A DNA stretch of 47,543 nt from a virus. Taxonomy: Duplodnaviria; Heunggongvirae; Uroviricota; Caudoviricetes. Position numbers and translations under genes: made by a program. This document shows, piece after piece, positions 29,652-31,158 of the stretch. The notes beneath the pieces are model-generated. The model was not told the DNA's origin and searched no databases. It saw only the letters and a list, made by a program, of their open reading frames with translations. Every line of letters starts with the position of its first letter. Position 1 is the stretch's first letter. The stretch lies in the IMG/VR virus record IMGVR_UViG_2721755644_000004, one strand, 5' to 3'.

Positions 29652-29911
29652 GGTTCTTTCCACCATCTGAAAAATGATTCTTTAAAATACCTGACATGTA
29701 ATACAGAAAAAACACAAAACCATACCTTAATTAAAAACCTCATCATCAAGCAGATATGCATGGATAAACTACAAGACGAGATATAAACCACCCTGCATTT
29801 AAATAAACAATAAACAACATCAGAAAAATAATTCTGCTCTATGGTTTACAATCAAAAATATCATTTATACTTTTCAGAACATCACCAGCAAGGCATAAAC
29901 AAGGAAACTAA

Positions 29912-30247
29912 ATGAAGTGGATTGTGATTGATACAGTTATCCAGCCATCATGCGGAATATCTTTTTCAGTCATATGGAGTAAAATAAAATTAATAATCTG
30001 GTATCAATCGGATGCTTTCTTACCTCCTGAAAGTATATTTACACTGACTCACACAGGCATCATGCTCAATAACAAAGTGCTGCCTGTAACCATTTACAAC
30101 GTAGTACCATTCAATAAAACATTCTGGAATTTAATCAAAAACAGCCAGGAATGCCCTACAAATACAGATAACGTATTGAATGAATGCTTTAATAACCGTT
30201 GCACTCTGCAAATATGTCCTTATGGGCTAAAACAACAAAGTCCATAA
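29912..30247 (+). CDS. AT-rich hypothetical protein (111 aa, hydrophobic N-terminus, 6 Cys) in the stx-equivalent cargo slot
   Basis: Good SD (AAGGAAAC); strongly AT-rich codon usage unlike phage core; opposite orientation to late operon. Confidence 0.45.
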
Positions 30248-30694
30248 GGAGTTTACTCACATCTGACAAAATCAATATAAACAGCCCCTCCGGAGAGGGG
30301 CTGGAGAGTGGCGCTATGTGCCATTGCATGGTGCCGGGTGCCTCCCGGTGAATTCAGTACCAGCACCTGAATCCGCGATTATCCCATATACCTACTCGCT
30401 GATTGCCCCTCCGCACAGGGGGATTCACCATGCCAGTTTCTTTTAACAAACTCCCCGCAAACCAGACAACAGTCAACCGCCTGAATTGTGAAGTATTTAA
30501 AAATTTCTCCCGCTAACTGATACCCGGCTAACAGTCTGGCGTTTTCTTTTTCAGCAACGGGAAAGCAGCAACCACCACACCCGCCACCAGCACACCGTCA
30601 GCCAGCACTGACATTATCCGGCTGCTGCAATGCCATTCACAAAAACAGTAAGCAATCACTTTTTACCGTAACCGGTGATAATCCAGATATGTAT

Positions 30695-31051
30695 CTACCC
30701 CAGATGAGTAATCCGAAGTTCATCCATACCACAGGTCCTGGCTATTCTGTTGTACTCCTGAACAAGAGCAAATAATTCTGAATTAGCCACCATGAACTCA
30801 TCGCAAACCCTCTGTATAGCATCACTATTCAGAATAATAACGTCTCTTCCCGAAAGACGATCAGGAGTACAGAACAAAACTGTCAAACGGCTGAAGGCCT
30901 TTGCTCGTTCTGCATTGACTATATCAATACGCTGCCTAAGGATGAAACACCCCGACGCCTCATCAATATTCACTCTACCCACACCATATGAATGATAAAT
31001 ATTTAATGCTGAAAAAACCATTAGACCGTATAACAAACACTCAATCAACAC
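30695..31051 (-). CDS. Hypothetical protein (108-118 aa) in the stx-equivalent cargo slot
   Basis: ORF between tRNAs and AT-rich island, late-operon orientation; no recognisable domain. Confidence 0.4.
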   Translation of the reverse strand: MLIECLLYGLMVFSALNIYHSYGVGRVNIDEASGCFILRQRIDIVNAERAKAFSRLTVLFCTPDRLSGRDVIILNSDAIQRVCDEFMVANSELFALVQEYNRIARTCGMDELRITHLG

Positions 31052-31158
31052 TTAACAGAACTTTTATTTTTGACAAACATATAATATTTTCAACAATATC
31101 CTGAGCCAGGTATATTTCAGTATAAGGCTCTGCCGAAAGGAATCTGGAAGAATGAATA

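Follow-up and report, generated by a model that had tools for sequence, protein, structure and literature searches.

The DNA analysed here is a Caudoviricetes sequence of 47,543 nt (IMG/VR record IMGVR_UViG_2721755644_000004), referred to throughout as the window, and the feature in question is an island at positions 29670-31150 in the late region of a lambdoid prophage. The island is best explained, with a probability of roughly 0.9, as a mosaic of three independent and already described accessory modules lodged in the cargo region of the late operon. These are the anti-adaptor gene iraL on the plus strand, the small RNA (sRNA) STnc100 on the minus strand, and a minus-strand pair of small genes encoding a DUF3927 peptide and a protein of PHROG 2873. 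An earlier, sequence-only reading had proposed that this slot, between the tRNA genes and the holin gene and equivalent to that in which Shiga toxin (Stx) phages carry stxAB, holds accessory cargo of atypical composition. Both the placement and the cargo character are borne out, late transcription running on the minus strand, and the window contains no stx genes. The island is real cargo built from known parts (iraL and STnc100) plus two small genes without an assigned function, and does not represent a novel toxin/antitoxin or exclusion pair.

The first module, iraL (29912-30247, plus strand), encodes a 111-residue RssB anti-adaptor of the IraM/IraL/RssC family and lies antisense to late transcription. 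Its product is 100% identical at the amino acid level to WP_000871291.1 of Escherichia coli CFT073 (1343465-1343800, in the potB prophage). It matches the NCBIfam model NF007393, 'anti-adapter protein IraM', with 162 bits against a cutoff of 121 over residues 1-110 of 111, and aligns to a crystallised fragment of IraM (PDB 8twd) over residues 1-78 with an E value of 9e-32. The N-terminus of IraL accordingly reads as a probable match to the PmrD-like beta-barrel domain of IraM, which comprises residues 1-78. IraL (formerly ycgW) was described from the potB island of CFT073 as 58.9% identical to IraM (Hryckowian et al. 2014, PMC4045071), and a later paper gives its locus tag as c1429. It stabilises RpoS in log phase, and both RssB binding and RpoS stabilisation were demonstrated for this identical protein by pulldown, two-hybrid, and RpoS half-life assays (PMC4045071). 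By its sequence, the 111-residue open reading frame (ORF) is iraL, and the same role would be expected in the host of this prophage. A Pfam-A hmmscan returned no family for IraL or K-12 IraM even at E 10. PF11183 does appear in a protein database's precomputed table for IraM-family proteins, in contrast to the local search, and the assignment of IraL was based on NCBIfam and PDB instead.

The sequence-only reading had pointed to two convergent ORFs in the island, the plus-strand one having six cysteines and a hydrophobic N-terminus. Both ORFs exist and they are convergent, but the details given for IraL did not hold. Five cysteines are present (positions 14, 81, 92, 97, and 102), four of which form a conserved C-terminal pattern, ECP...C...C...ICPYG. 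With a maximum 19-residue Kyte-Doolittle mean of 1.44, the N-terminal stretch does not qualify as a membrane segment; it corresponds to the soluble N-terminal domain of IraM seen in 8twd.

In RefSeq, the gene at 29912-30247 carries the PGAP name 'anti-adapter protein IraM' despite the identity of its product to IraL. This name is misleading with regard to regulation and hides a difference in the mode of RssB binding. Taken at face value, it would imply a gene that works like K-12 iraM, induced by PhoP/PhoQ on Mg2+ starvation and encoding a protein that contacts both RssB domains. Apart from the name, such a role would agree with the 62% identity to K-12 IraM over 107 residues (ratio of non-synonymous to synonymous substitution rates, dN/dS, 0.17) and with the alignment over the crystallised residues. 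It is nonetheless very improbable, as the protein is identical to IraL and not to IraM, and the contact cluster Ile61-Tyr62-His63-Ile64 of IraM reads I-Y-N-V in IraL. Moreover, IraL binds RssB's N-terminal domain only and acts in log phase (PMC4045071). The upstream regions of K-12 iraM and the window iraL gave no alignment by blastn at a word size of 7. A PhoP box, and with it IraM-type regulation of iraL, was rejected given this lack of detectable upstream similarity and the presence of a single half-site-like GGTTTA.

In CFT073, iraL is transcribed from its own sigma-70 promoter and the transcription start has been mapped (PMC4045071). The 5'-RACE sequence published for the iraL mRNA, ACATCACCAGCAAGGCATAAACAAGGAAACCA (PMC4045071), corresponds to window positions 29879-29910 at 31 of 32 bases, and the region upstream of the gene is 98% identical to that of CFT073. 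The promoter lies at 29845-29879 (plus strand), where the -35 hexamer would be TTTACA (29845-29850) and the -10 hexamer TATACT (29866-29871), separated by a 15-nt spacer and followed by the start at A29879. Given its antisense orientation relative to late transcription and a sigma-70 promoter of its own, iraL can be read as a classic lysogen-expressed moron that is not driven by PR' and Q. The earlier suggestion that the cargo is placed for expression from PR' under Q control therefore fails for the 111-residue ORF, given its opposite strand, its own promoter, and its mapped start. It stands, as far as orientation goes, for the minus-strand PHROG-2873 ORF, DUF3927, and STnc100, all of which are co-oriented with PR'.

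The second module is STnc100 (Rfam RF02076; 30273-30462, minus strand), recognised by cmscan with 132.4 bits against a gathering threshold of 47 over the complete model (1-206 of 206, E 4e-30). Two related GC-rich hairpins had previously been noted in the island; their coordinates are correct, but they are not separate elements, both being stems of this one sRNA. The first, CAGCCCCTC-cgga-GAGGGGCTG (30282-30303, minus strand), is the intrinsic terminator of STnc100, identified by terminator scan, Rfam, and folding. It consists of a 9-bp GC-rich stem and a 4-nt loop followed by UUUAUAUUGAUUUUG, with the U-run on the minus strand only. The second, CCCCT-ccgcac-AGGGG within 30405-30424, is placed by the Rfam alignment as the internal first stem-loop (30406-30421, minus strand; 5 bp, CCCCU-GUGCGG-AGGGG on the RNA). 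All eight STnc100 copies compared have four of its five pairs identical; the fifth does not pair in one of them. The 9-mer GCCCCTCCG is common to both hairpins. As it is absent from other STnc100 copies, for example that of 933W, the likeness between the hairpins is probably incidental, and an attenuator working by alternative pairing of the two was rejected on the same ground.

Across the eight STnc100 copies, taken from different phages, 11 of 38 pairs still pair after two-sided changes, mostly in the variable helix, and there is almost no change in the closing helix or the first hairpin. The window copy folds with a minimum free energy z-score of -2.3. STnc100 is found at the same place in all eight comparator loci that span the junction, including 933W, where it lies 75 nt after stxB2 (3278-3483 of the locus examined), and a position 75 nt after the stx2 operon has also been published. 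Published quantitative PCR primers for STnc100 match the window exactly at 30413 and 30340. Strain EDL933 has 11 copies, the majority of which are transcribed; a northern blot confirmed one. In enterohaemorrhagic E. coli, the Hfq-bound sRNA EcOnc27/sRNA103 overlaps STnc100 just after stx2B, and STnc100 has been related to PasD (Zhu, Shabalina and Storz). A discrete, Hfq-associated sRNA is therefore known for homologous copies and is predicted here by analogy, where it would act in trans as a base-pairing regulator.

Several short peptide ORFs had also been listed for this part of the island. Those overlapping 30318-30516 are antisense to STnc100 and have no family support in Pfam or NCBIfam. 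Ribosome footprints on some STnc100 copies were reported from EDL933 by ribosome profiling (RIBOseq), with tatgggata entered for one copy under the Shine-Dalgarno column. This motif also occurs in the window copy, and short ORFs on the sRNA strand are present in 30253-30476 (minus strand), one of which runs through the terminator. Some prophages carry two diverged STnc100 copies per late region, such as vB_EcoS-640R1 (3674-3862 and 4138-4331 of the locus examined) and a prophage locus labelled L007 (1344-1556 and 4650-4839). In L007, a gene for an AraC-type regulator and an IS3-family element lie between the two copies, and the IS3 element truncates a PHROG-2873 homologue.

The convergent arrangement of iraL and STnc100 has led to the proposal that their transcripts overlap and regulate one another in cis, either as antisense RNA or through transcriptional interference, which would tie the stabilisation of RpoS to whether the state is lysogenic or lytic. 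The iraL stop at 30247 is just 26 nt from the 3' end of STnc100 at 30273, and the shared hairpin has its U-run on the minus strand only. Since no plus-strand terminator is predicted until 31281, about 1 kb away, transcripts extending past iraL would be complementary to STnc100, and iraL would in turn be crossed in antisense by Q-modified late transcription. The equivalent slot of 933W likewise holds an antisense-oriented sRNA, AsxR. The proposal is an argument from geometry, however, and a hairpin may give weak termination in either direction; such coupling is considered unlikely.

The third module occupies the exact stx-equivalent position, which is 30500-31158, from the tRNAs to STnc100, and not the iraL segment. 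Its first component is a DUF3927/TciB-like peptide of 43 residues (30528-30659, minus strand) with one hydrophobic helix, supported by Pfam PF13064 (92.7 bits against 25) and PHROG 1470. The peptide has a maximum 19-residue Kyte-Doolittle mean of 2.34 and is annotated by PGAP. Its partner is a small protein of PHROG 2873 (30695-31051, minus strand; E 1.7e-70), for which three starts can be considered: GTG 31051 (118 residues), ATG 31021 (108 residues), and GTG 30973 (92 residues). The 92-residue product from GTG 30973 is the most likely, because homologues of 91-95 residues begin at (M)NIDE. The family is small, with 23 relatives found by HMMER among 1.8 billion representatives, and these are short or repetitive coiled-coil proteins that offer no functional lead. 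A single-protein scan for PHROG 2873 found one locus in Citrobacter braakii, where a relative with 40% identity is flanked by prophage tRNAs on one side and a holin/endolysin cassette on the other, beside a TerB-like gene.

It might be argued that the minus strand of 30500-31158 is a non-coding spacer and that the PHROG-2873 ORF is not a true gene. In none of the RefSeq genomes examined does PGAP call the ORF, its start codon is ambiguous, it has no Pfam or NCBIfam family, and it contains a weak terminator-like hairpin. Against this, the ORF stays open at lengths of 91-95 residues in copies that are just 33-62% identical, and the core shows a dN/dS of 0.27 against a copy that is ~60% identical. 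An AlphaFold2 model gives a two-helix hairpin (pLDDT 75) whose core is confident, and the Citrobacter braakii homologue is found at the same prophage position. A spacer is hence unlikely, and the PHROG-2873 ORF is concluded, from its pattern of substitution and conservation, to be a real gene under purifying selection with no assigned function. A membrane-linked accessory role around lysis or exclusion is a guess for the cargo genes. A conjecture built on this would make PHROG 2873 and DUF3927 an uncharacterised late-expressed unit, for instance a membrane-directed lysis-timing or exclusion factor. Separately, it would have interference of iraL with STnc100 or with late antisense transcription couple RpoS stability to the prophage state. 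As a whole this conjecture is held only tentatively and is considered improbable.

The independence of the modules is evident from the ways in which they are combined elsewhere. Phage vB_EcoS-640R1 has DUF1737, iraL, and STnc100 with other cargo upstream and without the PHROG-2873 ORF. Conversely, mEp460 has STnc100, DUF3927, and PHROG 2873 with a TolA-like gene in place of iraL. JLK-2012 carries tciA/tciB upstream of STnc100, and in phi296 the tRNAs are followed directly by STnc100 and nanS. The match to the window ends just past the conserved CACCATGC of STnc100 in both mEp460 and JLK-2012, marking this sRNA as the apparent recombination junction around which modules are exchanged. The second slot, from STnc100 to nanS-p/DUF1737, holds iraL in the window and AsxR at the same place and in the same orientation in 933W. 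There, within 3278-3537 of the locus examined, STnc100 is on the plus strand, and its 3' end is directly adjoined by the minus-strand AsxR (RF02703). In a set of 5426 complete E. coli genomes, the iraL module is found in 1431 and the DUF3927 and PHROG-2873 module in 1183, or about a fifth. The whole arrangement, counted at 80% or more coverage, is present in 863.

This modularity also bears on the earlier idea that the two convergent ORFs might be partners in a small toxin/antitoxin or superinfection-exclusion pair transcribed from PR'. Small convergent ORFs with a structured RNA between them, in AT-rich DNA of a prophage cargo slot, would be in keeping with such a pair. However, one of the two ORFs is IraL, a characterised RssB anti-adaptor whose gene is antisense to PR', and the ORFs are 447 bp apart with STnc100 and DUF3927 between them. 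Other phages have one and lack the other, iraL alone in 640R1 and the reverse in mEp460, and the separate module counts of 1431 and 1183 compare with a joint count of 863. Neither ORF matches a toxin-antitoxin or defence family in Pfam, NCBIfam, or PADLOC, and Rfam finds no toxin-antitoxin RNA family in the region. The pair is thus separable and its existence as a functional unit is extremely improbable. A PADLOC match to AbiEii on the neighbouring DUF1737 fragment was dismissed as sub-threshold (E 0.007).

The whole island has a GC content of 39.8%, compared with 51.4% for the window, and just 0.1% of stretches of equal length are as low. The AT-richness reported earlier is real, but it is confined to two sub-segments rather than spread uniformly. 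The iraL module (29667-30272) has 32.8% GC and is the lowest 600-bp stretch of the 47.5-kb window. The second sub-segment, 31022-31158, has 32.1%, and the PHROG-2873 ORF adjoining it has 41.9%. The centre of the island is ordinary, with 55.3% GC in STnc100 and 51.5% in DUF3927.

Taken together, the mosaic would work as follows. iraL would be transcribed against the late direction from its own sigma-70 promoter, and IraL would bind the adaptor RssB, block delivery of RpoS to ClpXP, and so raise sigma-S in growing lysogens, as demonstrated experimentally for the identical protein of CFT073. STnc100, a predicted structured sRNA of ~190 nt co-oriented with late transcription, would end at the 30282-30303 terminator. 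The putative DUF3927/TciB-like membrane peptide and the predicted helical PHROG-2873 protein of 92-108 residues would occupy the stxAB position of Stx phages. As both genes are co-oriented with PR', their products are probably made on Q-antiterminated late transcripts.

Several points weigh against this interpretation. Expression of iraL, STnc100, and the cargo genes in this prophage is read from sequence and homologues. Compared with CFT073, three substitutions fall in the iraL promoter or 5' untranslated region (directly 3' of the -35 hexamer, at position -1, and in the untranslated region), and the level of iraL expression could therefore differ from that in CFT073. A sigma-70 scan found no convincing promoter for STnc100 or the PHROG-2873 gene, with six sites found and 5.2 expected, which is chance level. 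The PHROG-2873 ORF is left uncalled by PGAP in O104:H4, in CFT073, and in the features listed under the 1183 genome matches, and its start codon is uncertain. A Foldseek search of its model against PDB returned nothing at E <= 0.001 and generic coiled-coil matches only.

The surrounding late genes lie on the minus strand in the order Q, tR', three tRNAs, the island, a DUF1737 remnant, holin, a DUF1327 ORF, and lysozyme. The Q antiterminator gene (32373-31552, minus strand) matches Pfam Antiterm with 184 bits. Between Q and the tRNAs, the terminator scan identified a tR'-like intrinsic terminator (31452-31471, minus strand), consisting of AACCCGCCGCCGAGCGGGTT followed by TTTTATT; read-through by Q-modified polymerase would be required here. 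The gap between Q and the tRNAs (31452-31551, minus strand) also contains a candidate PR' with TTGATT, a 17-nt spacer, and TAAATT, with a strong terminator ~50 nt downstream. In lambdoid phages, a PR' with a strong terminator nearby is the layout behind a short leader RNA of the 6S/StxS type. The only Rfam match at 31452-31551 (minus strand) was a sub-threshold one to Trp_leader.

The Q-side border of the island is formed by the tRNA trio (31159-31408, minus strand), comprising a CAT-anticodon tRNA, Arg-TCG, and Arg-TCT according to ARAGORN, Rfam, and the PGAP and 933W annotations. These flanking tRNAs are ileZ/argN/argO-like. The CAT-anticodon tRNA (31333-31408, minus strand) is called 'Met' by ARAGORN and tRNA-Ile (ileZ) in PGAP and the 933W record, and is presumably decoded as Ile after lysidine modification.

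At the lysis-side border is a DUF1737 ORF of 67 residues (29463-29666, minus strand; Pfam PF08410, 62 bits), which is a truncated N-terminal remnant of a NanS-p/SASA sialate esterase gene. The full-length esterase of about 617-645 residues is present in O104:H4 and 933W, where it starts at the position of the window DUF1737. The CFT073 counterpart is an incomplete pseudogene according to PGAP. The catalytic part of NanS-p is deleted in the window (29463-29666, minus strand, and 29215-29462). Beyond it, gene calls give a P21-type holin (29260-28940, minus strand) and a lysozyme (28008-27475, minus strand). Between these two lies a 297-residue ORF with an N-terminal DUF1327 domain (28045-28938, minus strand), at a position taken in related prophages by a short gene of the YdfR family.

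As a discovery, the island offers little, since iraL, STnc100, and DUF3927 have already been curated or experimentally characterised. Its value is corrective. The RefSeq label 'IraM' has been placed on the functionally distinct IraL, and what had seemed two hairpins belong to a single sRNA. Two small genes make up the real stx-equivalent cargo, and one of them, PHROG 2873, lacks annotation in the RefSeq records examined despite signs of purifying selection. It also seems that the slot between STnc100 and nanS-p collects lysogen-expressed elements oriented against late transcription, with iraL here and AsxR in 933W.

The closest known counterpart of the iraL module is that of CFT073. The protein is identical, the 606-bp module matches at 596 of 606 positions (98%), and the potB prophage has the same order of Q, tRNAs, DUF3927, STnc100, iraL on the opposite strand, DUF1737, and holin. 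The two differ by ten substitutions in the module, including the three in the promoter or 5' untranslated region, and by an IS200 element between Q and the tRNAs in CFT073, which the window lacks. K-12 IraM (YcgW; PhoP-induced; 8TWD) shares the NF007393 family and the conserved C-terminal four-cysteine pattern with IraL. It differs in its genomic context next to e14 and in its interaction with RssB, as RssB-contact cluster III is just half conserved in IraL, which binds the RssB N-terminal domain alone.

The cargo pair resembles tciA/tciB of JLK-2012 and related lambdoid phages, in which the stretch from the tRNAs to the lysis region likewise has one other small gene, then DUF3927, and immediately downstream of that STnc100. 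In the window, however, the partner is the PHROG-2873 helical protein and not a TerB-domain protein. The STnc100 copy agrees with STnc100/EcOnc27/sRNA103 of Stx2 phages, which is related to PasD1/PasD2 of enteropathogenic E. coli, in its full model match, its helices, and its position relative to the cargo and nanS-p. Unlike the Stx2-phage copy it follows DUF3927 rather than stxB, and its variable middle helix and terminator sequence differ from those of 933W.

The overall architecture is that of 933W, which runs through Q, tR', ileZ-argN-argO, cargo, STnc100, an antisense-oriented element, nanS-p, and holin. The contents of the slots set the two apart. The cargo of 933W is stxAB and that of the window is PHROG 2873 with DUF3927; the antisense element of 933W is the 53-nt sRNA AsxR and that of the window is the protein gene iraL; and nanS-p is truncated in the window to its DUF1737 domain.

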